Shown here: piece after piece, positions 5,087 to 64,000 of the stretch | Layout: every line of letters starts with the position of its first letter | Position numbering within the stretch: the stretch's first letter is position 1 | Sequence record: NC_005859.1 | DNA length: 64,000 nucleotides | Origin: Escherichia phage T5 | Strand: one strand, 5' to 3' | The notes under the pieces: model-generated | Databases searched by the model: none | Seen by the model: the letters and a program-made list of their open reading frames with translations, nothing else | Told to the model about the DNA's origin: nothing | Position numbers and translations under genes: made by a program

Positions 5087-5303
5087 AAAATGGGAAACAA
5101 GGAAGTTTCCAGTAAAAGAACGTAAAGTTCCTGTTTATGATACTTCGGAGAAGCTATGTAGGGTGGTACCGCACAGATTAGCTGGCATCCCTAACATATC
5201 CGAATGGTTACTTAAACAACGGAGGACTAGCGTATCCCTTCGCATAGGGTTTGAGTTAGATAAAGTATATGCTGAACTTTCTTCTTTGCTCAAAGAATCA
5301 TAA
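5070..5303 (+). CDS. hypothetical small protein
   Basis: ATG overlapping HNH stop, RBS ggagaga; longer upstream start at 4980 would overlap HNH coding. Confidence 0.3.
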   Translation: MTVKNKKWETRKFPVKERKVPVYDTSEKLCRVVPHRLAGIPNISEWLLKQRRTSVSLRIGFELDKVYAELSSLLKES

Positions 5304-10358: not shown

Positions 10359-11867
10359 ATGCTCCTTCCCCTTTTTGCATTTAGAAGGCACGAAAGCGTG
10401 CAAAGGAGAATGACCTTGTTTAACGTGCAAGCTGTAGTGTTGAAGATGCTTCTAGCTTCCGAACAGAAGCAAATAGCATTGGAAACATTCTCAAAACTGC
10501 ATAAAGATCATTTTAATGACGCTTTCTCCTCAATTTACCAAGCCGTCCAGAATTATTATAAAAAATATAACACAATGCCGTCCATTGACGCACTGATGCT
10601 TGAGGCTAATAGGAACGCCCGCCTTTCTCAAGCTCTAGTCGTTTTAGCTAACACTCAAATTCCAGAAGTTAGCATGGAACAGGCACTTGAAGTCCTAGAG
10701 GCCGAGTATACACAGGATTTATTCCTGAAGCTTCTAGAAACAGACGTGCTTCAAGATTTAACAATGCTGGATCAGGGAGAAATTCTTAACCGAGTTGCCT
10801 CCCTTCACTTAAAATTAGAAGAGAAAGTAACGAATACTGGAAAAGTATTCAACGCAGATAACATGCGTATTTTCCAGAGAGAAGAAGATACCAAACTGAA
10901 CTTAATCGCTCTTGGTATTTGTAATGAGTTCGACGCTCAAATTGGTTTAGCTCGCACAGAAACGTTACTGCTTGGTGGTTGGCGTGGTACTGGTAAATCC
11001 ATTATCTGTTCAAACATACAGGTTGGAGATATTGCTCCATACTTCTCAATTGAGATGAAAGAACATGAAGTATTTAGACGTAATCTAGCCATGTTAGCTG
11101 GTGTATCAGCACTAGCAATGCGAAATAATACTCTAGAAGGTGCAGCTCTGTTGAGATTAGCCAGAACTAGAGCTAGAATGTTTAACGGTGGTGAAGAGCT
11201 TTTCGATAACTTCGTTAAACAATACACAATGGCTAAGATGAGTGATTTCTACGATATGGAAAGTAAGCTAATAGAAGGATATGAGCTACATACTCCTATG
11301 ATTATTGTTTATGATCCTGAGCTGTCTATTACAACAGTTGACGTAGAATTAAATAAATTAGTTGCTAGATATGGGGATAAAGTTACAGTAGCTTTACTTG
11401 ACTATATTAACCAAACCCGACTTCCAGATTCTAAAACCATTGATATGTATGACTGGAAAGAACAGATGGTTGTTAGCTCGTCTTTCAAATCCATCTGCCA
11501 GAAACATAACGTGGCTGGTGTAGCTCCTTACCAGATTGATCAAGATGGTAGAACACGTATGTCAAAAGGGATTCTTGATTCCGCAGACATGGCTGCTAAT
11601 CTTAATGCTGCAAAAGCTGATAATGGTCAAGGTGCTATTATGTTTGACTTCGTTAAGACCCGTTCTTCTGATAGCGTGAAGTTTATGCCTAAAATGAACT
11701 GGGAAACCCTGCGGATGGATAACACTACCAACCTAGCAATGGAAGATATATCTCAAATGGAAGCTGAGTTCGTTATCCCTATTGAGAAGGATAAGCCGGC
11801 TCAATCTAAACGTGCTAAGAAAGACAAAGCTGAAAATTCAACAGGTGAACAGGCCAGCGATATATGA
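10359..11867 (+). CDS. DnaB-like replicative helicase
   Basis: Walker A GGWRGTGKS; RecA-like C-terminal half; exact start uncertain (10359 has ggagg RBS, alternatives 10410/10416). Confidence 0.75.
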   Translation: MLLPLFAFRRHESVQRRMTLFNVQAVVLKMLLASEQKQIALETFSKLHKDHFNDAFSSIYQAVQNYYKKYNTMPSIDALMLEANRNARLSQALVVLANTQIPEVSMEQALEVLEAEYTQDLFLKLLETDVLQDLTMLDQGEILNRVASLHLKLEEKVTNTGKVFNADNMRIFQREEDTKLNLIALGICNEFDAQIGLARTETLLLGGWRGTGKSIICSNIQVGDIAPYFSIEMKEHEVFRRNLAMLAGVSALAMRNNTLEGAALLRLARTRARMFNGGEELFDNFVKQYTMAKMSDFYDMESKLIEGYELHTPMIIVYDPELSITTVDVELNKLVARYGDKVTVALLDYINQTRLPDSKTIDMYDWKEQMVVSSSFKSICQKHNVAGVAPYQIDQDGRTRMSKGILDSADMAANLNAAKADNGQGAIMFDFVKTRSSDSVKFMPKMNWETLRMDNTTNLAMEDISQMEAEFVIPIEKDKPAQSKRAKKDKAENSTGEQASDI

Positions 11868-53740: not shown

Positions 53741-53850
53741 TTGGGAAATCTCGAAATTTCATAAGATTACACATGAAGGTGTGTCCACTGCCTCCGGCGA
53801 AAATACTTAGTCTGCTAACCGCCACCCCCGTTACTATTACCATGCTAACT

Positions 53851-53887
53851 GTTTCACCCTGCAACCATTTTAATTGCAGGGTGAAAC
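53851..53887. other. perfect 14-bp-stem hairpin at late / pre-early junction
   Basis: gtttcaccctgcaa - ccattttaa - ttgcagggtgaaac; no adjacent U-tract. Confidence 0.6.
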
Positions 53888-53904
53888 AATTTCAACTTTA
53901 ATTA

Positions 53905-54639
53905 TTACGCAACTTTTAATTTCTCAATATATTGTTGCGGGCTGCAACTATATTCTGCGCGTTCTTCTTCGGTCATACCTTCCCAACATAATTGCAGGCG
54001 GTCGGCTAGGAACTGATAATCATTATCATCCTCAAGAGATTCATCAATAAAGGTTTCACCTATCAATGTCACGCCGATTGATAGAATATCATTAACGGCT
54101 TGTGCGTCCAGCGTTTTAAATCCGTATGACGCTGCCGCTGATAGCACGCCTTTATGATCATCAATCATTGTAAAATCAGCGTTCGGATATAATTGTTTGA
54201 ATAGCCCAAAATAGTAACTTTTATAAACTGCGTCTTTGCTGTGGTATATCTCGCTAACTTTATCAGCCTCAAAATATTTGTGTAGTGTATCGCGGGAAAA
54301 TACACGGATATTACTATCACCACGACCGCGCAACCCTTGTTTACGCAAATAATAATAGTCCGACTTGCTCATTAGTCGAGCGGTGCAAATAATGTTTAAA
54401 GTATTTGCGTCATTCATGCACTGGCGCATATATGTAACAAGGGGCAATAGTGTATCTTGCATTATTAAATCATGTTTGCAGGCTTCATTTTTATACTTAT
54501 TTAAATCTAAATTGCCCTCGCTATCAAAGCAAGGCGCTACACGATGAAACGAATTAATGATAGTGCCGTCCAGATCCCAAATCATGACGCGGGAAATATG
54601 CGGGAAATTACGGGTAATATTCGTTTTAACTTGATTCAT
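53905..54639 (-). CDS. dmp: 5'-deoxyribonucleotidase (HAD family), Dmp-like
   Basis: 244 aa; HAD motif I IWDLDGT; terminal-repeat-like position next to A1. Confidence 0.75.
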   Translation of the reverse strand: MNQVKTNITRNFPHISRVMIWDLDGTIINSFHRVAPCFDSEGNLDLNKYKNEACKHDLIMQDTLLPLVTYMRQCMNDANTLNIICTARLMSKSDYYYLRKQGLRGRGDSNIRVFSRDTLHKYFEADKVSEIYHSKDAVYKSYYFGLFKQLYPNADFTMIDDHKGVLSAAASYGFKTLDAQAVNDILSIGVTLIGETFIDESLEDDNDYQFLADRLQLCWEGMTEEERAEYSCSPQQYIEKLKVA

Positions 54640-54719
54640 TTTGTTACGTTCTCCATTTGAGGGATTAGATTAATTCAGCATTACCCGCTATTAAATAGCG
54701 GGTAATAATAAATTAACTA

Positions 54720-55115
54720 TTAAAGGCCATACGCTAGCGCATCAGCGATAAAACTAACATCCTCGCCCGATACGCTGGAACGAATGCCAGCGCATGTATA
54801 CACCTTTGCGCTCATTAGCTGATCATCAAGGCAAGCGGGGCAAGGTGCGACTACTGCGAAAGCTAAACCGGATTTTACCGCGTCAATAATGATTGTTTCC
54901 TGTTTCATAGTGTCAACATAAACACCTTTTGCTTTAATATGGCTTGTTAGTTTGCCCTGCATATATGCAAACGTTGTAACTTGCATCGCGTCATTGAAAT
55001 CTAATAGCTCATCAATAACGTGACCGGCCTCGACGTGATAACGCTGACCATTAGAATAAACCAGAACAATAGAAGACTGAGCGCGATCGAATGGGATACG
55101 GTTAGATTTAGCCAT
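54720..55115 (-). CDS. hypothetical pre-early protein
   Basis: 131-aa ORF between dmp and A1. Confidence 0.55.
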   Translation of the reverse strand: MAKSNRIPFDRAQSSIVLVYSNGQRYHVEAGHVIDELLDFNDAMQVTTFAYMQGKLTSHIKAKGVYVDTMKQETIIIDAVKSGLAFAVVAPCPACLDDQLMSAKVYTCAGIRSSVSGEDVSFIADALAYGL

Positions 55116-55151
55116 GTTTATAACTCCAATTAGTTTAATAAGGGATTTAAT

Positions 55152-55430
55152 TTATTTGCTAGCTTCAAGACTTACAACAAAAGCGAGATTTGTTTCTTTC
55201 CATACGTCAGGAATATCATTTTCCTGTAAATGGTCTTTCGCTTCATACTCATTTTCAAAAGAATAAAAATCGCCGGACTCAATTATATAAATATGCCCGT
55301 TTAGTTCATTTTGATAAATATAACAATTATTATCTTTTAAATTGCGGTATACAGTACCATGCCGTAAAACATCAAGCGACCATGTATCAGCGGTGTTTTT
55401 CATGCTGGGAAGATTAATTTTAATAGCCAT
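55152..55430 (-). CDS. hypothetical pre-early protein
   Basis: 92-aa ORF. Confidence 0.5.
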   Translation of the reverse strand: MAIKINLPSMKNTADTWSLDVLRHGTVYRNLKDNNCYIYQNELNGHIYIIESGDFYSFENEYEAKDHLQENDIPDVWKETNLAFVVSLEASK

Positions 55431-55486
55431 TTAATTTAGCTCCTGTAATAGCGGCTATATCTCAAGCCGCTAGGGGAATAATTTAA

Positions 55487-57157
55487 TTACGCAAAGAATT
55501 TACCATTCTTAAAGTCAATCAAAGTGCGTTGACCGTTTGCATAGGTAATAATATGCGTTTGAGTCCAGCTAGACGCGCCAACGTTGTAACCCATGTCCAG
55601 ACTACCAGTCACGCCAGCGGTATAAACGCCGCCGTAAATGCTGGCGGTGTGGGTGTGTCCGGTGTTTAATTTGCCCAATTTCTTAAACTGTTTCGGGTTG
55701 CCACGGCTCCCGTTAATGCCGTTGTGACCGTGTACGCCGCATTCAATGCCTGCAATCTTGAAAGATTGGTCAGTGGTCAGGAAAATGGCGTTAAATTCAC
55801 AGCCTGCAACCTTGCGCAGCGCATAATCAAGCACGTTAAAAGTATCGTCTTTTTCTGCAATAGCTCCATAAATCGCAGCATTCAGGCGGTGATATAGTTC
55901 CGCGTTTGCTGGGTCGTCTTTAATGTTAGCATTACGATCATCTAACCAGCGGGATAGCGCCAGATCATGATTAGATTCAACAATGATTGTTTGAGAAAAA
56001 TCACGCTCCATTGATTCCAGTACGCGCCCCGTATCGATAAGATCATCTAATACCTTATCACGTCCGGCGGCATATTGTTTCGCTAGGAATACGCCAGATG
56101 CGCGGTTGTGATGGTTGCGTGATGTAAAATCATGCACGTCGTGTACAAACTGATATTTTGGTTTAAGAATATCAACAAGCCCGTAGGTGTCACCATGCCC
56201 CCAAGACGCAGCGGCGCACTCCTCATCTAATTTTTCAGCGTGAATGTCGCCATATTGTAAACCTAAAACGTGCCCCGTTGTTTCATAACATCCGGCAGGA
56301 GTGGCGCAAGTATTCAAATCATAAAACACGCCGCTCTCGTCCATCGTTTCAAGCTGGCGCACAAAAAACTCACCGTCCTCGTCAAACTCAACAATAAGCG
56401 CACCGAAGTTATGCAGCGCCTCGGCCTTTTGTCCTGCTTTCTGCTGGATGTAATTTTTTAGCGTTGCCGTTCCGGTTGAATACATACGGCGCACAATTTC
56501 ACCTTTTAAAGCTGGCACGCTTTCGGCGGTGATTTTAGCCGCTCCAATTGCTAGACCTTCAAGATTCAGCGCGGTTGCAGTTTCAGCGAATCCAGAAAGC
56601 GGATAATCTGCGGTGGGTAAAACGTTAATTTCAGCCATGAAAGCAAATCGGCGATTATTTAAAAACACGTTTTTATTGCAGATATATTTGTCAAATGCGG
56701 AATCGTATCTGATACCGTCGGCGCCCTCGCCATTTTGAAAACCGTTTTTGTTATAGATAAACTTGCTAACCAGCAAATCAGCGCCGATAAATTGGGCGTA
56801 TTGTTCAAGTGAGGCTAAAAAGTTTTTATGCGGGAACGTATTATTCTGAATCGATGTAATAATAAAGCGTTTACCTTGTTTTACTTCCCATTGCTCAACC
56901 GTGCTAGAAACAATCCCCGCCGCTTCTGGGCGCTCATCGTTTTTAATGGCTTTTGCTACTTTCGCCGCTTTCGGTTTCGCTGGTTTATTTGCTTCCAGCC
57001 AGTCACAAATTGCGGTAGAGTGTTTTGTTGTATCGTAAACCATTTTTGAAATATCGTCGCAAACTTCCAATTTAGTAGCGCGCAGACGTTTACCGTAGAA
57101 ATTAAAGTCAGCGGCCATTTTCAGGATAACGGTTTGTTTTTCTGCGGAAATAACCAT
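55487..57157 (-). CDS. A1: A1-like pre-early protein with metallophosphoesterase domain
   Basis: 556 aa, same length as T5 A1; calcineurin-like motifs GDIH, GDTYG, ESNHD, GHNG, HTHT in C-terminal half. Confidence 0.75.
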   Translation of the reverse strand: MVISAEKQTVILKMAADFNFYGKRLRATKLEVCDDISKMVYDTTKHSTAICDWLEANKPAKPKAAKVAKAIKNDERPEAAGIVSSTVEQWEVKQGKRFIITSIQNNTFPHKNFLASLEQYAQFIGADLLVSKFIYNKNGFQNGEGADGIRYDSAFDKYICNKNVFLNNRRFAFMAEINVLPTADYPLSGFAETATALNLEGLAIGAAKITAESVPALKGEIVRRMYSTGTATLKNYIQQKAGQKAEALHNFGALIVEFDEDGEFFVRQLETMDESGVFYDLNTCATPAGCYETTGHVLGLQYGDIHAEKLDEECAAASWGHGDTYGLVDILKPKYQFVHDVHDFTSRNHHNRASGVFLAKQYAAGRDKVLDDLIDTGRVLESMERDFSQTIIVESNHDLALSRWLDDRNANIKDDPANAELYHRLNAAIYGAIAEKDDTFNVLDYALRKVAGCEFNAIFLTTDQSFKIAGIECGVHGHNGINGSRGNPKQFKKLGKLNTGHTHTASIYGGVYTAGVTGSLDMGYNVGASSWTQTHIITYANGQRTLIDFKNGKFFA

Positions 57158-57253
57158 AATAATAAAACTCCATTAAAGGGATTAAAAAACGTTTGTTATT
57201 GGCAATATTGCCAAATATAACGCCTTGAATAATAGGCGTTATAATTTGCAACA

Positions 57254-57451
57254 TTAATTTAAAGGCATAAGGCTAGAACTAACACCACAAGCAACGGCGG
57301 CAATAAAACAAATCAGACCTAAACGCTTTGCTAACTTAGATTTACGTTTAAAATAATACGAATCTAAATCATTTTGAAAATAAGCGAACAATAACGAGGC
57401 CGCCATAATAAACAAGCCTAGAATGAGGGATTCAGTAGGGTAAAAGATCAT
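57254..57451 (-). CDS. small membrane protein
   Basis: 65 aa with two hydrophobic helices. Confidence 0.45.
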   Translation of the reverse strand: MIFYPTESLILGLFIMAASLLFAYFQNDLDSYYFKRKSKLAKRLGLICFIAAVACGVSSSLMPLN

Positions 57452-57507
57452 TTTAAAACTCCAGTCAAAGGGAAATTATAGTGGGGAATATTCCCCACTA
57501 ATTAAAT

Positions 57508-57915
57508 TTATTCGCCTGCGGCTTGTTTTACTTCATCGGCAACGCCTAACAGTTGCGCCACGGCGTCCAGCGTTTCCAATTTTGCACTTTCCAGTGATGC
57601 CAGATCGTCAGCGTCTTTGATAATACCGGAATCGATGGCATGTTTTGCAATCACACGCACGTAGTGCGCTTTGCGGATAGAACTGCCGCCGCCAACCTTG
57701 CGAGGTTTATCGCTTTTCTGATACGCTTTCGCGCTGGTCAATTTTGAGCGAACAGACACGGGAGAAGCCGCGCCAACTGCTTTTGCAATCTCTTTTAAAC
57801 CGTCGCTATTTGCGAAATCTAAACCGTTTTCATTAATTAACTGCTGGTACATGGAAACAGCTTTCTGAGTGTTTTCTTCATTCCAAGCGAATTTTGCGGT
57901 TTTAGCGTTAGTCAT
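57508..57915 (-). CDS. A2: A2-like pre-early DNA-binding protein
   Basis: 135-aa ORF immediately after A1 in transcription order; size and position match T5 A2. Confidence 0.65.
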   Translation of the reverse strand: MTNAKTAKFAWNEENTQKAVSMYQQLINENGLDFANSDGLKEIAKAVGAASPVSVRSKLTSAKAYQKSDKPRKVGGGSSIRKAHYVRVIAKHAIDSGIIKDADDLASLESAKLETLDAVAQLLGVADEVKQAAGE

Positions 57916-58010
57916 GATGTAACTCCTGTTTATTTAATTTAAGGGATAAGATTAACATAATGTTAATCGTTATATCCCCCGAACTACTGGGGGATATAAA
58001 AGTAACACTA

Positions 58011-58262
58011 TTACGCTACGGCTTCCCATTTTTCGTTACGCTGGGCAACCTTTACAACGTCGCCGGATTTAACCCGAACGTTGTAAACAGTTTTTCCGTT
58101 GTTACTCCGTTCCGTTTCAGCGTATACCGCATCAATTACATCAAACGGCATAAGCGCCGCGCCTTTAATGCGTTCGGTTTTTCCGGTTACCTCATCCGTT
58201 TTAGTAACGAAAGGGATAAAAACGGATTGACCAATTTTTGGCGCAGTAGTAACGTTTTGCAT
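58011..58262 (-). CDS. hypothetical protein
   Basis: 83-aa ORF; GC-richer codon usage like the A1/A2 block. Confidence 0.5.
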   Translation of the reverse strand: MQNVTTAPKIGQSVFIPFVTKTDEVTGKTERIKGAALMPFDVIDAVYAETERSNNGKTVYNVRVKSGDVVKVAQRNEKWEAVA

Positions 58263-58495
58263 AATATAAACTCCAGTTTATTAAGGGGGATTGTTCCGCA
58301 TTACCTGCTGTAAAAGTAGTGGCAGGTAATAAGCAACAATCCGCTCGCCAATATAATCAATTTAAAGAACTCCACTCAGGCCGCTATATCCCAGTTAGGG
58401 GGCGGGACACATTATGGTAAGTGCCGACCGTCATATTTTATCAAGTTATCGCTCTCATCGAACTGGGTACATCTTAAAGCCTATCGGCTAGGGTG

Positions 58496-58699
58496 TCAAA
58501 CTATTTTTTGCAGTTTTTTATGATTTTCTTTCAAGTCAATCATAATGTTTCGCCAGATCATTTCCAGACCTTGCTGGCGGCCTTTCTTGTACTGCCTAAA
58601 TCGATATTTTACCGATTGCTGGGCTATTGTCAACAATTTTTTAGTAGTACCATCTAATTTTTTAGCTGGTTTACCAGTGATCAATAAAGTTTGTTTCAT
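58496..58699 (-). CDS. hypothetical basic small protein
   Basis: 67-aa Lys/Arg-rich ORF in an otherwise non-coding stretch. Confidence 0.3.
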   Translation of the reverse strand: MKQTLLITGKPAKKLDGTTKKLLTIAQQSVKYRFRQYKKGRQQGLEMIWRNIMIDLKENHKKLQKIV

Positions 58700-59191
58700 A
58701 TCGTCGATTCCTTATAATATATAAGTTTACCGCCGATAGACTTTAAGATGTACCCAATTTTTAAAGAGCGTGGCGGTAAACTTCCCGCCGTGTAGTTCGT
58801 CATTGCCGCCCTACGAGATAAATAATAGGGGATACCCAAAAATGGCGCAACCTTATTTTTGTAAAGAAACGTAAAGAAGGCAACACGTCCGGCGCTCACC
58901 TAAGTTTAAAGGAAACGGGCGCGCGAATACCATAAAACCTAGCAGGTTGGCAAGTAATTTTTTCCTTTATATTTGCCTTGCCCTAGTTGACAAATCTTAG
59001 AAAGCTCGTGGTGACGATAAACGGGTTATCCCCTTATGATGGGATGCCTGAAAAATTTACCGCGTCAGAAAGCGTTTTAGGCGGCTTATTTTCGATTTAA
59101 CAAATATTTAACAAAAGCAAAATTGAAAAATAGTTGGAAAAGATATTGACTTTTAAAAATCAAGACTAAACGAGTTATTTTATAAAATTAA

Positions 59192-59710
59192 TTAATTGAC
59201 AATTCCAAATTCAGCTTTTTTAGTTTCTACCCATAATAATAACTCTTGTAAATCATAACCTGATTTACTAACACTTTTGTTACTAGTAGGATCTTTAACT
59301 ATAGCGCGCAAATAGTTTCTTCCGTTATTATCAACTCTAGAACCATTATAATAGATATGCTTAGGCAACTTATTAGCACGCTTATAATCTTTCTTGTTAT
59401 TCATATTCTGCTTATGGTCTACTAAGCGAAGATTATTAATGTTATTATTAGCACGGTTACGATCATTATGATCGATTGTTAGATTGCTATCAATCTCACC
59501 ATTAAATAATACCCATATTATTCTATGCACTGCGTATTGTTCGCCTGCTAACTTTACTCGATAGTAACCTGTGTTACTATAATGCCCTGCAATATCACCC
59601 ACCTTACTATTACCTTTCTGTACTTTCCATCTTAGAAATGATGGGGATGTTTCATCATAATAAAAGTTATCATTAGCAAGCGAATAATCTATATCTTTAA
59701 ATAGACCCAT
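59192..59710 (-). CDS. HNH homing endonuclease with AP2-like domain
   Basis: 172 aa; AVHRIIW...IDHNDRNRANNNINNLR...HKQN HNH motif; third member of the family at 4556 and 11864. Confidence 0.7.
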   Translation of the reverse strand: MGLFKDIDYSLANDNFYYDETSPSFLRWKVQKGNSKVGDIAGHYSNTGYYRVKLAGEQYAVHRIIWVLFNGEIDSNLTIDHNDRNRANNNINNLRLVDHKQNMNNKKDYKRANKLPKHIYYNGSRVDNNGRNYLRAIVKDPTSNKSVSKSGYDLQELLLWVETKKAEFGIVN

Positions 59711-59876
59711 TGTTATAGTTTCCTTATGTTATTAATTTAATCTCTATTATATTATATCAAAACCATTAGCAAACTACCTAATGAGTTTTTCAGGTTTAAT
59801 TAGCAGACTCATAATCACTTTAAAATCCTATTAGCCAACTAACTATATTTTGTTATATAATAACTGCATAAATTAG

Positions 59877-60010
59877 TTAGTGAGAAACACTATCATTTAA
59901 GTTATCCACAGCCTTATACATTTTGTAAATTAACTTGACACAATAGGAAGGCTTTATAGCACTTTTACACAGACTTATCCACAGGTTATTCCACTGTATA
60001 AATATACAGG
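59877..60010. repeat. left arm of ~130-bp imperfect inverted repeat, with DnaA boxes and 16-bp palindrome
   Basis: TTATCCACA at 59903-59911 and 59975-59983; palindrome ctgtataaatatacag 59994-60009; reverse complement aligns by eye with 63192-63320. Confidence 0.65.
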
Positions 60011-60275
60011 GTAAATGGAAAACATATTATAATGATGCCCAAAATAAGCGGCCTAAAACGCTTTCTAACGAGCAAAACGCTATAGGGTAATATTAAAGTA
60101 AAGCCTCAACGCGTCGCCCTGGTGGCTTCGCCGTGTTTTGCTCTTTACTATACCGCTGCGCGGTTAGCATAAAACTAGGCGCTAGGCAAGGAAAATAAAA
60201 AGGTAAAATAATATTTGCCTATGCTAGAAAATTACCTTTATCATTCACTCACCGATTAACGAGGGAGGCCAACAA

Positions 60276-61286
60276 ATGCGGCTATATAAACCAGATAACG
60301 CAACCGTCTTAAAGGGCGCCTTGCGCAACCTGCTGGATGGTAGCAGGACAACCAGCATTAAACATTTTATTAACAAGGCTGAAACTATTCACCAAAACTT
60401 TTTTAATGATTATGATGCCTATGATATGGATAGTTTTCTACCCCTATATAAGCAGGGGGCAACGATTATCTTATATAATCGTGATTGCCATATCTTTACG
60501 GGCAGGGGAGCGGGGCCGGATACTGATTTTATTGTTGCGCAGGGTAATAATATCGTTGCGTATCATAGCAATTCAGGCCGTCAATCATTTAATATAAATA
60601 ATTTTGAGCTTGTTGGGCTTGAATTAATAAACGGACTTTCTAGCCTTGAGGGATTTTTAGATGTTATCTGGAAGTATTTATCTGCTGGATGGCATAGACC
60701 TGATAGTGATGGATCTCAATATACGGCTGTAATGGCTTTTGATGGCGACGGTAATTTTTTATTACCATCGGAATTATATCCGTATGTATATAATGAGCTA
60801 GTACAAGAAGCGGGTTTTATTTTCTGGAAAGATGAGAATCAGATCATTGACAACACGGAAAAACATGCTGTAAATTCTAACACTCAAAGCGTTAACACTC
60901 AAATCACTGAAAACAAAGGAAAAAATGCCATGACCAAGATCGCTAATATCGTTGCCGCTAATAAATCCGCCGTTGTAAATGCTGCAAAACTGGAAGCGGG
61001 CAAAATTGCATTAACTCAAATCACGAAAGTAGCGGCTAAAAAAGCACCATTTATGATTAAAGGTTATATTGATACGCCTATTGGTCGGGTAGTTATTGCT
61101 AACCTGCTGAGCGTAGCGGTTGACCAGTACGCCCCTAGCAACCAAAAGGCGAAAGCGGTAGCGGGTGCAGCTATGGAAGCGGCTATGCTAGAAATGGTGC
61201 AAAGTTTTAACATCGCTGAAATGATTGATGAAATGGTGAAAGGTATTGATATTTCTACTTTTACCGTTAACACCGAAAGCGAGTAA
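60276..61286 (+). CDS. hypothetical protein (336 aa), first gene of inverted-repeat-bounded cassette
   Basis: RBS gagggagg; mixed alpha/beta N-terminal domain, Ala-rich helical C-terminus. Confidence 0.65.
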   Translation: MRLYKPDNATVLKGALRNLLDGSRTTSIKHFINKAETIHQNFFNDYDAYDMDSFLPLYKQGATIILYNRDCHIFTGRGAGPDTDFIVAQGNNIVAYHSNSGRQSFNINNFELVGLELINGLSSLEGFLDVIWKYLSAGWHRPDSDGSQYTAVMAFDGDGNFLLPSELYPYVYNELVQEAGFIFWKDENQIIDNTEKHAVNSNTQSVNTQITENKGKNAMTKIANIVAANKSAVVNAAKLEAGKIALTQITKVAAKKAPFMIKGYIDTPIGRVVIANLLSVAVDQYAPSNQKAKAVAGAAMEAAMLEMVQSFNIAEMIDEMVKGIDISTFTVNTESE

Positions 61287-61314
61287 TAATTAACCTAATG
61301 TAAAGTTTTGTAAA

Positions 61315-61340
61315 GGTCGCCATAATCGGCGGCCTTTTTT
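61315..61340 (+). terminator. possible terminator/attenuator
   Basis: short GC stem (tcgcc/ggcgg) followed by CCTTTTTTG. Confidence 0.35.
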
Positions 61341-61404
61341 GTTATAATGCCTTTACACCGTTTGAGGACGGTTGAAAATTTTCCCAAAATTTTGGAGGCT
61401 TAAA

Positions 61405-61635
61405 ATGGTTGCTTATTCTTCTTCTGACGCTCTTTTCACTGGAAAAGGCTGGGTATCAAATCGCTGGATCATTCAAGAAATGGTGCAGGAGTTCGGCATT
61501 GCTAAAACTTACACTACCATTCAGGCGCTTTATGATAATGATCAAATCGATCAGCAAACGGCGGGCTTTTTGCTGGATACCCTGAAAGCGGAACACTGTA
61601 CTAAAAAACAAGCCGCCAAAATTGTTTTAATGTAA
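61405..61635 (+). CDS. hypothetical protein
   Basis: 76 aa from ATG with RBS ggagg 6 nt upstream (track start 61372 is TTG). Confidence 0.55.
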   Translation: MVAYSSSDALFTGKGWVSNRWIIQEMVQEFGIAKTYTTIQALYDNDQIDQQTAGFLLDTLKAEHCTKKQAAKIVLM

Positions 61636-61684
61636 TTAATAACGGGGCGTTACTTTCGCCCCACTAACTAGGGGAGTATTACAA

Positions 61685-61849
61685 ATGGTTATTTTTCGAG
61701 CTATTCTGGCAGGTATCTTGGGCGCTATTCTGACCCTTTTTGCTACCGCTTACGGTATTCAAGATTCTTATTGTGGTTTAGTAAATACTAAACCTATGGT
61801 TATTATTGGCGCGGGTATCGCTGTATTTTCTTATCTGCTGGGCTGCATG
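61685..61849 (+). CDS. small membrane protein (54 aa)
   Basis: hand-translated MVIFRAILAGILGAILTLFATAYG...; RBS gggag; not in ORF track. Confidence 0.35.
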
Positions 61850-61866
61850 AATAAAGGAGAATAAAA

Positions 61867-62079
61867 ATGATCCGCAACGTTTCTCTTGCTCGTTCAAAGG
61901 GTTTTAAGCTGGTGGATGTTAACACATTCGAGCGGGAAGATTGTAAAATCGAATATGTAGCACGTAATAAAAACGCCTTTCGTGTTACAGAAAAGAAATT
62001 TGATAAGCGCGGCAACGTGATAGCTGAAACGGTTAAACATTTTGCCACCTTTTACGCGGCTTTTCGTGGAGTGTTATAA
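61867..62079 (+). CDS. hypothetical protein
   Basis: 70-aa ORF, RBS aaaggaga. Confidence 0.55.
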   Translation: MIRNVSLARSKGFKLVDVNTFEREDCKIEYVARNKNAFRVTEKKFDKRGNVIAETVKHFATFYAAFRGVL

Positions 62080-62080
62080 A

Positions 62081-62425
62081 ATGGTAATTTATGAAGGCAA
62101 TCGCTTTGTTGCTATTTGCCGACCGGGATTATTAGCAAACTACTTAAATCAGGTGTCACCTGAATATAAAGGCGTCATTAATATTTATGAGGGCAAGGCG
62201 CATTATAAGATTAATGCGGTCGTTGCCCGTGAATTAGCATTTCAATTTTTGACTTTCGCATCTTGTGATATTCAGGTCATGGGTGAAGCGTTAATTGCAG
62301 AAAATGAAGATGATTTTATTAATATCTTCCGCAAGGTATACACCGAGCGCCTGATAATGAAAGGCGCATATATTCAGTCAACTGCGGAAAGTATTGAAAC
62401 AGCTTTCAGAAAGGTGGCGCAATGA
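62081..62425 (+). CDS. hypothetical protein
   Basis: 114 aa from ATG 62081 (RBS ggag), 1 nt after upstream stop. Confidence 0.55.
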   Translation: MVIYEGNRFVAICRPGLLANYLNQVSPEYKGVINIYEGKAHYKINAVVARELAFQFLTFASCDIQVMGEALIAENEDDFINIFRKVYTERLIMKGAYIQSTAESIETAFRKVAQ

Positions 62426-62440
62426 AGCTATATATTTTCG

Positions 62441-62719
62441 TTGGTAATGTTGAGGCTGCGAATGATTCCGCTGGTGGCGATAACGTTCGCCACTATTGGC
62501 AAAAATATATTTACTAGGGTTATTATGATTACACTGATTTGCGTTAAAGCCGAAGGCGACACGATAGCGCGAGAAGGGCAAAAATATAAAGCCCAAAAAG
62601 ATCAATTACTCAAAACAATTGAGCGTTACAAAATACCCGATCTCAAGTATTCCGTAGTAGGACGCGATGGGATTCTAAGGGCGACACTTGAGAACGCTAT
62701 CTTTGAGATAGTCAACTAA
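62441..62719 (+). CDS. hypothetical protein (start uncertain)
   Basis: track ORF begins with TTG; internal ATG at 62525 would give 64 aa. Confidence 0.35.
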   Translation: MVMLRLRMIPLVAITFATIGKNIFTRVIMITLICVKAEGDTIAREGQKYKAQKDQLLKTIERYKIPDLKYSVVGRDGILRATLENAIFEIVN

Positions 62720-62734
62720 TAACGGGGCGTTATT

Positions 62735-62938
62735 ATGAGCAATAAAATTATTGTGACCAAAACTACCACAATGGTAGACGTTTTTTATGTGCCCGATACG
62801 CCGGAGAATCGGGGAGCGGTCGAGCGGGGCGAGTATGATAGCGTTATTTATGATGCCGATGGTTATTATCAGCATTTGGTCGATTCCTACGGGGAAGAGG
62901 AGAAGATCACGCATCGATTACCCGAGGGGGATTTATGA
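62735..62938 (+). CDS. hypothetical acidic small protein
   Basis: 67-aa ORF. Confidence 0.5.
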   Translation: MSNKIIVTKTTTMVDVFYVPDTPENRGAVERGEYDSVIYDADGYYQHLVDSYGEEEKITHRLPEGDL

Positions 62939-63048
62939 AACGATGGTTTAATCACTGGTATAAACGGTTTTTAGTACGGCATCGCAAGTCTAGACAGCAA
63001 GATGATTGGCGGGAAATGGCAAAGCGTAACAATTGCCCACTTCTCTGA
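62935..63048 (+). CDS. small basic protein (37 aa)
   Basis: hand-translated MKRWFNHWYKRFLVRHRKSRQQDDWREMAKRNNCPLL; ATGA overlap with upstream stop; followed by terminator. Confidence 0.35.
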   Translation: MKRWFNHWYKRFLVRHRKSRQQDDWREMAKRNNCPLL

Positions 63049-63055
63049 TAACCGA

Positions 63056-63077
63056 CGGGGATCAGCTCCCCGTTTTT
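63056..63077 (+). terminator. rho-independent terminator closing the plus-strand cassette
   Basis: cgggga-tcagc-tccccg hairpin followed by TTTTT. Confidence 0.7.
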
Positions 63078-63191
63078 CACGCCTCCAGTTAAATCCCCCT
63101 TTGTTTTAGTATCCCCATCAAAATTAAACGCGTTAGAATGCGATCTAGGACGTTTTAGGCATATATTAGAATTATTCACTGCGTAGGAATA

Positions 63192-63320
63192 CTGTATAAA
63201 TATACAGTAGGATAACCTGGGGATAAGTCTGTTGATAACGCTTCAAAATGGCTAGGATTTTGTCAAGGCGAATCGTGCTGTTGATAAGTCTGTGGATAAC
63301 TTAAATAACAGTGTTTCTCA
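63192..63320. repeat. right arm of inverted repeat, with DnaA-box cluster and 16-bp palindrome
   Basis: palindrome ctgtataaatatacag 63192-63207; DnaA-box-like 9-mers (rc TTATCCACA at 63291-63299; variants at 63209-63239 and 63279-63287); tail cttaaataacagtgtttctcac mirrors the left arm. Confidence 0.65.
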
Positions 63321-63323
63321 CTT

Positions 63324-63480
63324 CCGTTTTTAAATACGAATCATTATCATTCGTATTCCGCTTTTTAAATGAGAATCATTCCGCTTTTTAAATGAGAATC
63401 ATTTCACTTCCTGAATAGTTCTCATTCCCTTTCTTAAATGAGAATCATTATCATTTGCATTTCACTTTTTAAATGAGATT
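63324..63480. repeat. array of ~22-bp direct repeats (CCGCTTTTTAAATGAGAATCATT)
   Basis: two perfect tandem copies 63358-63403 plus three degenerate copies; each holds the small dyad AATGA-n3-TCATT. Confidence 0.75.
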
Positions 63481-63509
63481 GATTCTCATTATCATTCGCA
63501 TTCAGGCGA

Positions 63510-63527
63510 GCAGGGCAATTGCCCTGC
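63510..63527. other. perfect 18-bp palindrome
   Basis: gcagggcaattgccctgc followed by gcttttg. Confidence 0.7.
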
Positions 63528-63533
63528 GCTTTT

Positions 63534-63756
63534 GTGCAAATCCGACATTTGCCCCCATGGATTACGCGTGGGCGTGTATGTGCAAATCCGACAATTTTTG
63601 GTAGTGTGCGAATCCGACCCGAAAAATTTTTATAGTGTGCAAATCCGACAATGAATTTTCCCAAAAACTCCAGCAATCACGAACTGCGTTCGAATCCTGT
63701 GGAATTAGCTAGAGTATGTGCAAATCCGACATGTGTTGAGATGTGCGAATCCGACA
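63534..63756. repeat. iteron-like array: six copies of 14-bp GTGC(A/G)AATCCGAC(A/C)
   Basis: copies at 63534, 63580, 63606, 63646, 63718, 63743 with irregular 25-72 bp spacing, all same orientation, non-coding. Confidence 0.8.
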
Positions 63757-63892
63757 AGATTTTTGTGACTTCGATGGGAGGGTGTGTGATTGTATGGGTT
63801 TGAGGGGAAGATGAGAGAGCGAGAGAAATTTGGGAGGCTAGAAGGATATGGGCGCAGGATTGGTGCGGAGCACCTGATTTGCGGGGATTTTG

Positions 63893-63936
63893 GGGAAGAG
63901 TTGAGATAATTTGGGAAGATTTGAGATAGGTGCAGA
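63893..63936. repeat. purine-rich tandem repeat (TTTGGGGAAGAGTTGAGATA-like, 2 copies)
   Basis: within a strongly G+A-skewed plus-strand tract 63770-63940. Confidence 0.5.
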
Positions 63937-64000
63937 AAAAGTAAAATTTTATTAGCTAAAGGGGGCAAAATAGCTTGACAAGTGAAAATTTCTGTGGCTC

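Follow-up and report, generated by a model that had tools for sequence, protein, structure and literature searches.

The inverted arms in the terminal repeat

Escherichia phage T5 carries in its terminal repeat two inverted sequence arms that flank a cassette of small pre-early genes. The DNA considered here is a stretch of 64,000 nucleotides at the end of T5 (NC_005859.1), referred to as the window. The window's end is identical to the last 16,490 bp of a 121,750-bp T5 contig in IMG/VR. The first 10,219 bp of that contig are identical to window positions 53782-64000, and the window therefore holds the right-hand copy of the terminal repeat. The left-hand copy is the first-step-transfer (FST) DNA, the first to enter the cell. 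The arms are 131 bp each, at 59879-60009 and, inverted, at 63192-63322, and are the two copies of the IRC-spacer-IRD element in T5's 10.2-kb terminal repeat.

The arms were aligned in three ways. A repeat search pairs 59879-59917 with 63284-63322 (39 nt, 92%) and 59969-60009 with 63192-63232 (41 nt, 88%). These high-identity blocks are the two ends of the 131-bp unit, and its middle is less alike. MAFFT and blastn align the left arm with the reverse complement of the right arm over the full 131 bp at 71-74% identity, with a blastn E value of 2e-14 in a small database (loci L001-L043). An earlier sequence-only reading had described inverted arms of about 130 bp in a T5-like lytic phage; the arms hold up in all three alignments, including the reverse-complement comparison it had suggested, and the phage is T5 itself.

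The left arm, IRC-spacer-IRD, belongs to T5 Repeat Region 2. Leftward pre-early genes (HNH, then A2 and A1) lie on one side of it and the rightward accessory cassette on the other. It lies ~3.3 kb before the right arm, at the head of the dispensable pre-early cassette. The right arm has the order IRD'-spacer-IRC'. By megablast, window positions 59700-63600 are 100% identical to AY692264 and 99.8% identical to AY587007, and the arms coincide with annotated repeats. The AY587007 annotation lists inverted repeats C, D, D', and C', palindrome D, and direct repeat B, which are exactly these features. In AY692264, the right arm is within a feature named 'injection stop signal', and the major 7.9% nick (~63529) is located ~207 bp to its right.

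The arms and their DnaA boxes are already published, and the present work leaves the published description of the object unchanged. Davison (10.1101/866236) described the 131-bp 'IRC-spacer-IRD' and 'IRD'-spacer-IRC'' elements as conserved in 25 phages, with eight DnaA or DnaA-like boxes in pairs 3 bp apart, a constant spacer, and a variable distance between the arms. The first sighting of the DnaA boxes is credited there to a 1987 paper. Davison proposed that the DNA is held at the boxes by membrane-bound DnaA, a DnaA-based model of the injection stop that is still only a proposal according to papers of 2023 and 2026. The element analysed here is identical to Davison's in sequence, in its 131-bp extent, in the DnaA pairs 3 bp apart, and in palindrome D. 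Added to Davison's account are a test of arm co-evolution, a reading of palindrome D as a LexA box, the inversion of the cassette, and the presence of the module in Vibrio phages.

Arm anatomy and DnaA boxes

Comparisons were made with 40 loci from 29 distinct T5-like genomes, collected by a search with the A2 protein. Both arms were located in each, and 27 of the genomes are type-1. Each arm is a fixed array composed of an outer 23-bp block, a DnaA pair, a spacer with TTGAC, a second DnaA pair, and a CTGT-N8-ACAG palindrome. The two boxes of a pair are 3 bp apart in both pairs of each arm. Both arms are 131 bp long in the 27 type-1 genomes, and two Sugarland-type left arms are without the outer part.

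The left arm begins with the outer block AGTGAGAAACACTATCATTTAAG (59879-59901, + strand), most columns of which are at least 95% conserved in both arms across 27 genomes. The block is a relative of the DRC/DRE repeat unit found to the right of the right arm, forming a repeat pair with 63433-63453. All DnaA positions of this arm are on the + strand. Box L1 (59902-59910) is a perfect TTATCCACA and matches the consensus in 25/29 left arms. Position L2 (59914-59922) is TTATACATT in T5, a degenerate form with two mismatches, and is TTATCCACA in 15/29 relatives; this is the eighth box that is described as lost in T5 (10.1101/866236). The spacer holds TTGACA at 59935-59940 (+ strand), of which TTGAC is kept in nearly all left and right arms examined. 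Box L3, TTTTACACA (59963-59971), fits the consensus TTWTNCACA in the scan and the 29-genome tally, and box L4 (59975-59983), 3 bp past L3, is again a perfect TTATCCACA by the same two measures. The two perfect boxes of the sequence-only reading are thus present, at 59902 and 59975, its start of 59903 for the first being off by one.

In the right arm, the boxes lie on the - strand in mirror order. Boxes R4, TTATCCCCA (63218-63226), and R3, TTATCAACA (63230-63238), each have one mismatch, are 3 bp apart, and are identified by sequence, by the tallies, and by Davison. Box R2 (63279-63287) is also TTATCAACA, with one mismatch, in the sequence and the 29-genome tally. Box R1 (63291-63299) is a perfect TTATCCACA by scan and tally. 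The outer block, the reverse complement of AGTGAGAAACACTGTTATTTAAG, closes the arm at 63300-63322 (- strand) in the alignments. DnaA-type 9-mers had been claimed for this arm, and it indeed has one perfect TTATCCACA and three one-mismatch variants between 63218 and 63299.

The boxes are concentrated in the arms. All three perfect copies of TTATCCACA in the 64 kb are inside the arms (262 bp); from shuffled sequences, 0.65 copies would be expected in the entire window. The looser TTWTNCACA has eight matches in the window, four of which are in the arms. The box positions are conserved across the 29 T5-like genomes and in distant genera. Recruitment of host DnaA, one of the roles suggested for the clusters in the sequence-only reading, is a reasonable interpretation of this conservation and agrees with the literature, with binding itself predicted from the boxes. 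The other suggested roles, titration of DnaA or promoter control by DnaA, found no positive support: no sigma-70-like promoter was called in the arm spacers, and the annotated promoter of the cassette begins ~180 bp inward of the left arm.

Like oriC, datA, and DARS of E. coli, the arms are clusters of TTWTNCACA 9-mers held in a fixed register, with all those of an arm pointing the same way. This resemblance could suggest that the clusters form a DnaA-dependent replication origin, or a sink that titrates DnaA and LexA. Such a role is very unlikely. Mapping places the T5 origins close to the centre of the genome, and the FST DNA carries none of the replication genes (10.1101/866236). No DnaA-box enrichment was seen elsewhere in the 64-kb window, and titration would presumably be pointless because the host chromosome is degraded within minutes. 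Unlike oriC, datA, and DARS, the T5 arms have tandem pairs in a 12-bp register, are away from the mapped T5 origin, and are coupled to a LexA-type palindrome, their binding of DnaA being predicted. The IHF consensus WATCAANNNNTTR had no convincing match in the arms when they were inspected by eye.

A promoter within the arm spacer was considered and rejected. In both arms, the invariant TTGACA lacks a -10 element at a distance of 16-18 bp, and the promoter scan calls none.

The palindrome as a LexA-type box

The inner end of each arm is the 16-bp palindrome CTGTATAAATATACAG, exact at 59994-60009 and 63192-63207, the two positions at which it had been noticed earlier. Its LexA form had gone unrecognised in the sequence-only reading, as had the terminal repeat and the injection stop signal. 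Over 20 positions, the left copy CACTGTATAAATATACAGGG (59992-60011, core 59994-60009) agrees with the SOS-box consensus at 16/20, has a heterology index of 4.86, and is conserved in 29 left arms. The right copy TACTGTATAAATATACAGTA (63190-63209) agrees at 19/20 with the consensus TACTGTATATATATACAGTA, has a heterology index of 0.87, and is conserved in 29 right arms. The LexA consensus string TACTGTATATATATACAGTA is confirmed in PMC13203515.

The right-arm palindrome is the best-scoring LexA-type site in the 64 kb. The matrix for the heterology index was built from 24 E. coli SOS boxes, and its values are approximate. On this scale, these E. coli SOS boxes range from 0.7 to 9.5, the next-best site of the window has 8.9, and the minimum in random 64-kb sequence averages ~9.4. 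The half-sites are nearly invariant in 58 arms, and the variants that do occur, CTGG or CCAG among them, are tolerated in natural LexA boxes. In distant genera, the central 4 nt vary while CTGTAT and ATACAG are retained, which is the pattern expected of LexA sites. Palindrome D therefore has the form of a near-consensus LexA (SOS) box, a modest new lead in which LexA binding is predicted.

LexA and SOS are nowhere mentioned in the text of Davison (10.1101/866236). Titles and abstracts of the literature on T5 or Tequintavirus together with LexA or the SOS box also hold nothing on this site, and an earlier mention in Davison 2015, Wang 2005, or Heusterspreute 1987 is possible. With the SOS boxes of umuDC, dinD, and the colicin promoters, the T5 palindrome shares the CTGT-N8-ACAG form and an AT-rich centre. 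The heterology index of the right arm is as low as that of the best chromosomal boxes, within the approximation of the matrix. Unlike chromosomal SOS boxes, the T5 site has no recognised promoter overlapping it, belongs to a virulent phage, and occurs twice in inverted context, always beside DnaA boxes.

DnaA-box complexes and LexA block transcription. The arms could thus act as transcription operators, roadblocks, or insulators, with DnaA and LexA at the ends of the cassette confining host RNA polymerase and keeping it off DNA that is not yet injected. The left arm is in a divergent control region, the right arm directly follows the cassette terminator, and weak inward promoter-like hits overlap both palindromes (TATACA-16-TATTAT at 60003-60030, and 63198-63171 on the minus strand). 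These hits reach only 9 of 12 consensus positions, and hits of this quality are not commoner than in shuffled sequence (22 observed vs. 16.8 +/- 4.0). The inner flank at the putative -10 is poorly conserved in left arms, and the annotated promoter is ~180 bp away from the palindrome. Moreover, host DNA is destroyed early in infection, and regulation of the SOS type would have little obvious purpose. An operator or roadblock role is unlikely on this evidence.

Three more CTGT-N8-ACAG sites are found in the window, at 11006, 11322, and 44973, for a total of five against 0.69 expected. All three have poor LexA heterology indices (8.9-10.9), and two of them are 316 bp apart. From one close relative to the next, and also from arm to arm, the palindrome centre switches from ATAAATAT to its reverse complement ATATTTAT or back (loci L004-L043). 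In T5, both copies are identical on the + strand despite the inversion of the arms. The perfect consensus ATATATAT is one substitution from either centre form and was never seen in the same loci.

The module across the phage family

The combination of DnaA boxes and palindrome extends beyond the close relatives of T5. It is found in both arms of Slocum, My1, and the Sugarland-type phages, and in a single arm of PR1. Two Vibrio-phage lineages, with A1 about 35% identical, carry an exact TTATCCACA beside CTGTAT-N4-ATACAG on both sides of a ~3-kb cassette of small genes. The palindrome centres in these phages are AAAT, ATTT, AGAT, ATCT, and ATCC. In Vibrio phages D21 (locus L048, modules at 2050-2150 and 5150-5300) and Cilsick (locus L047), the TTATCCACA boxes adjoin LexA-like palindromes, and the cassette of tiny genes they flank is in the pre-early region. 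One Vibrio-phage palindrome, TACTGTATATCCATACAGCG, is what we take to be a very close match to the E. coli sulA box.

Outside this family, no homologous module was found in searches of plasmid and phage records. The arms had no match in plasmids, and among the phage records listed they occur only at this locus of Demerecviridae. The search matched 532 phage records, and those listed are T5-like by name together with one Vibrio phage.

Arm evolution

If the arms were kept as a pairing structure, the two arms of a genome should match each other better than arms of different genomes. Among the 27 type-1 genomes, left arms are on average 86.7% identical to orthologous left arms, and right arms 93.1% identical to orthologous right arms. 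Left and right arms are 76.8% identical within a genome and 76.5% identical between genomes (permutation p = 0.07). There is no concerted evolution of the arms and no selection for complementarity, because identity within genomes equals that between genomes while orthologs reach 87% and 93%.

The two arms have several blocks in common: AGTGAGAA-CACT...ATTTAAG as the outer block, the four DnaA-box positions, the spacer TTGAC, and GGTTATCCTA followed by the palindrome. Between the shared blocks, each arm has conserved sequence of its own. Shared blocks separated by arm-specific conserved stretches are the signature of protein-binding arrays, and the arms look like arrays of binding sites, not a stem. 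Mutation of individual sites, rather than disruption of complementarity, is thus the right experimental test.

The sequence-only reading had suggested that the arms could stabilise a stem, and the identities given above speak against it. A wider form of this idea is that the arms pair, forming a cruciform or a stem within single-stranded DNA or RNA, and thereby block transfer or prime duplication of the terminal repeat. The repeats are inverted, the surrounding region is rich in palindromes, and secondary structure has been named as a possibility in the literature. Nevertheless, the T5 arms are only 71% complementary, their spacers differ, they are separated by a variable 1.6-4.1 kb, and they have no excess of complementarity within a genome. 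Rfam had no match in 58500-64000. Pairing is disfavoured to the point of being scarcely tenable.

The gene cassette and its inversion

The cassette is read from a putative pre-early promoter, T5P4 (60188-60277, + strand), annotated in AY587007 and AY692264; the scan gave weak consensus hits only. The first gene (60276-61286, + strand) encodes a 37-kDa pre-early protein (T5p010) of 336 aa with a DUF7566 domain and is a non-essential gene of the del1 region. It is followed by seven small accessory pre-early open reading frames (ORFs) on the + strand between 61405 and 63048, whose presence or absence varies among relatives. From the ORF list and the annotation, they are located at 61405-61635, 61685-61864, 61867-62079, 62081-62425, 62441-62719, 62735-62938, and 62935-63048. 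Of these, the one at 61867-62079 has a match to phrog_4227, an endonuclease nicking the abasic sites made by host Ung; Pfam and PHROGs assigned no function to the other small ORFs. The palindrome C hairpin with its T-run (63054-63075, + strand) is a putative rho-independent terminator by sequence and carries a terminator annotation in AY587007; with only 4 T in the 8-base window of its tail, it escaped the simple terminator scan. A plus-strand operon at 60276-63048 ending in a terminator, as first read from the sequence, is therefore borne out.

The arms stay invariant while the cassette between them varies. Across the 27 type-1 genomes, genes have come and gone and the arms are 1590-4060 bp apart, with constant orientation and gene order. 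A comparison of cassettes among T5-like phages had been proposed, and it does show content varying between constant arms.

Outside type 1, the cassette is also found reversed. In Sugarland-type genomes, the first gene has a full-length homolog on the opposite strand (36% identity, E = 8e-44). A weak homolog of the fifth gene is on the opposite strand as well, and the gene order is reversed. My1 has the cassette reversed as in the Sugarland-type genomes, while Slocum and PR1 have the T5 orientation. On a neighbor-joining tree of A1, a single-gene tree with modest support, this pattern needs at least two inversions. In Davison's description, the cassettes of Type 2 and Type 3 phages were 'replaced' by different sequences with the opposite reading direction; homology at the protein level argues instead for an inverted homologous operon. 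That the cassette flipped at least twice in the history of the family, as the inverted arms allow, is thus partly shown. In My1 and the Sugarland-type genomes, the inner flanks are alike, and the inverted repeat extends ~90 bp further inward (z = 16.5 and 8.6, against z = 1.6 in T5). Because the two inner flanks resemble each other in these phages, a flank-swap comparison does not place the inversion breakpoints.

These observations bear on the possibility that the arms exist to promote recombination, as crossover sites of an invertible or exchangeable module of accessory pre-early genes. A recombination module had been suggested in the sequence-only reading, and on an evolutionary time scale that part stands: the size and content of the cassette vary between constant arms, the operon is inverted in the Sugarland-type phages and My1, and the longer inverted repeat occurs in exactly these lineages. 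An active switch is not indicated, as the orientation is the same in all 27 type-1 genomes. When all cassette ORFs and the adjacent HNH gene were searched against Pfam and PHROGs, no recombinase or serine invertase was found. Additionally, the arms are not homogenised in sequence, the breakpoints could not be placed within them, and the conserved protein-site motifs would be left unexplained. Inversion is more simply a by-product of inverted repeats, and recombination as the purpose of the arms is quite improbable.

The invertible segments Mu G, P1 C, and Salmonella Hin are likewise bracketed by inverted repeats, and the T5-family cassette occurs in both orientations among relatives. It differs from them in lacking both an invertase gene and a short crossover site with an enhancer. 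Its orientation is fixed in the 27 type-1 genomes, with inversion seen only between genera.

An origin of the arms as a transposon or miniature inverted-repeat transposable element was rejected. The outer flanks TAAATTAGTT and TCCGTTTTTA share no direct repeat, i.e., there is no target-site duplication. Pfam and PHROGs searches found no transposase, and the restriction of the arms to one Demerecviridae locus, with none in plasmids, also speaks against it.

A proposed host-factor platform at the injection stop

The T5 injection stop occurs without phage protein synthesis, which fits host factors that are already in the cell. Very good sites for two abundant pre-existing host proteins, with the right arm lying just before the halt point, point to a cis-acting platform for host factors, DnaA plus LexA, that takes part in the injection pause. 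This extends Davison's DnaA idea by LexA. It is the best-supported reading of the arms, and we hold it tentatively, as a possibility that falls a little short of being probable.

As proposed, the arms would be platforms for DnaA and LexA, host DNA-binding proteins that are present when the DNA enters. Their loading onto the FST DNA would require no synthesis of phage proteins, and the nucleoprotein complex so formed would help pause DNA transfer at 8% and would later be undone by the A1/A2 step. The two mirror-image arrays may also bridge, looping out the cassette. The steps from binding to stop and from A1/A2 to release are ones that we infer. The cassette is inverted or cut to 1.6 kb in nature, so neither the arm spacing nor the cassette orientation is critical.

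Several points weigh against this platform. Binding of DnaA and LexA to the arms is a prediction made from the sequence. A protein bound to DNA inside the cell need not obviously halt entry, and anchoring to the membrane is speculation. The left arm is too distant from the stop point to be the stop itself, and PR1-type phages have one arm only. Half or more of the right-arm boxes are one-mismatch variants, which DnaA may or may not bind well. The LexA box does not overlap a recognised promoter, and the usual role of LexA does not apply. The matrix behind the heterology indices is approximate. Finally, the phage protein A2 binds DNA, is 42% identical between T5 and a Vibrio phage, and could be the true reader of some blocks.

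This last point leads to an alternative in which the arms are sites for pre-early A2, A1, or both, which by binding or cutting at them would restart transfer or process the repeat, the likeness to DnaA and LexA sites being secondary. Davison proposes cleavage by A1/A2 at a palindrome in the region (10.1101/866236). The conservation of A2 reaches out to Vibrio phages that keep the module, and the outer block and TTGAC match no host-factor consensus that was tested. Yet the motifs fit two independent host consensuses far above chance and across genera, and the palindrome centre varies as in LexA sites. Sites for phage proteins also cannot explain a stop that needs no phage protein synthesis. This alternative is doubtful.

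A bolder form of the host-factor platform would make palindrome D a true high-affinity LexA operator, with LexA and DnaA in one complex that holds the FST DNA. Loss of LexA could be among the signals that time or license second-step transfer, because the A1-dependent destruction of host DNA should activate RecA and lead to LexA self-cleavage. The composite would then be a host-sensing module common to Demerecviridae, including the Vibrio phages. This is rather unlikely as a whole. If true, it would link the two-step injection of T5 to the SOS switch of the host.

The stop of T5 transfer at 8% and its later resumption is a question more than 50 years old, and the cis-acting signal behind it still awaits dissection. 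Among candidates for the stop signal, the arms are the best conserved. LexA is predicted as a second host factor, with very high affinity, and its part is testable with standard lexA(Def) and lexA(Ind-) hosts.

Neighbouring genes and repeats

An HNH endonuclease gene (59192-59710, - strand; Pfam HNH_3, E = 1.5e-15) directly adjoins the left arm on its left side. Davison regards it as an insertion, present in only a few T5-like phages, that splits a formerly single repeat region. A motif of the form CCTAAAACG...TTCTAACG occurs three times, at 59056-59092, 60041-60077, and ~63110-63150. Two of the copies (inverted repeat B/B', 37 nt, 86%) bracket the HNH gene and the left arm, and the third is just inside the right arm.

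The DRC/DRE repeats at 63320-63505 consist of five ~23-nt copies of ATTCCGCTTTTTAAATGAGAATC with nested palindromes. They form one repeat family with the outer block of both arms. The repeats match the Fur-box consensus GATAATGATAATCATTATC at 15-16/19 positions at 63434, 63440, and 63475. Matches of at least 14/19 number 12 in the window against 3.75 expected, with 10/12 in the terminal repeat. Two overlapping 16/19 matches, GGAACTGATAATCATTATCATCCTC, are found at 54009-54033, ~230 bp into the terminal repeat. Some of the TonB-dependent receptors used by T5-like phages are under Fur regulation. The Fur-box reading is weak, as random sequence also reaches 16/19.

Just right of the 7.9% nick, the region 63530-63763 contains six copies of TGTGC(A/G)AATCCGAC with spacings of 46, 26, 31, 81, and 25 bp. 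These copies are annotated as 'direct repeat D' in AY587007.

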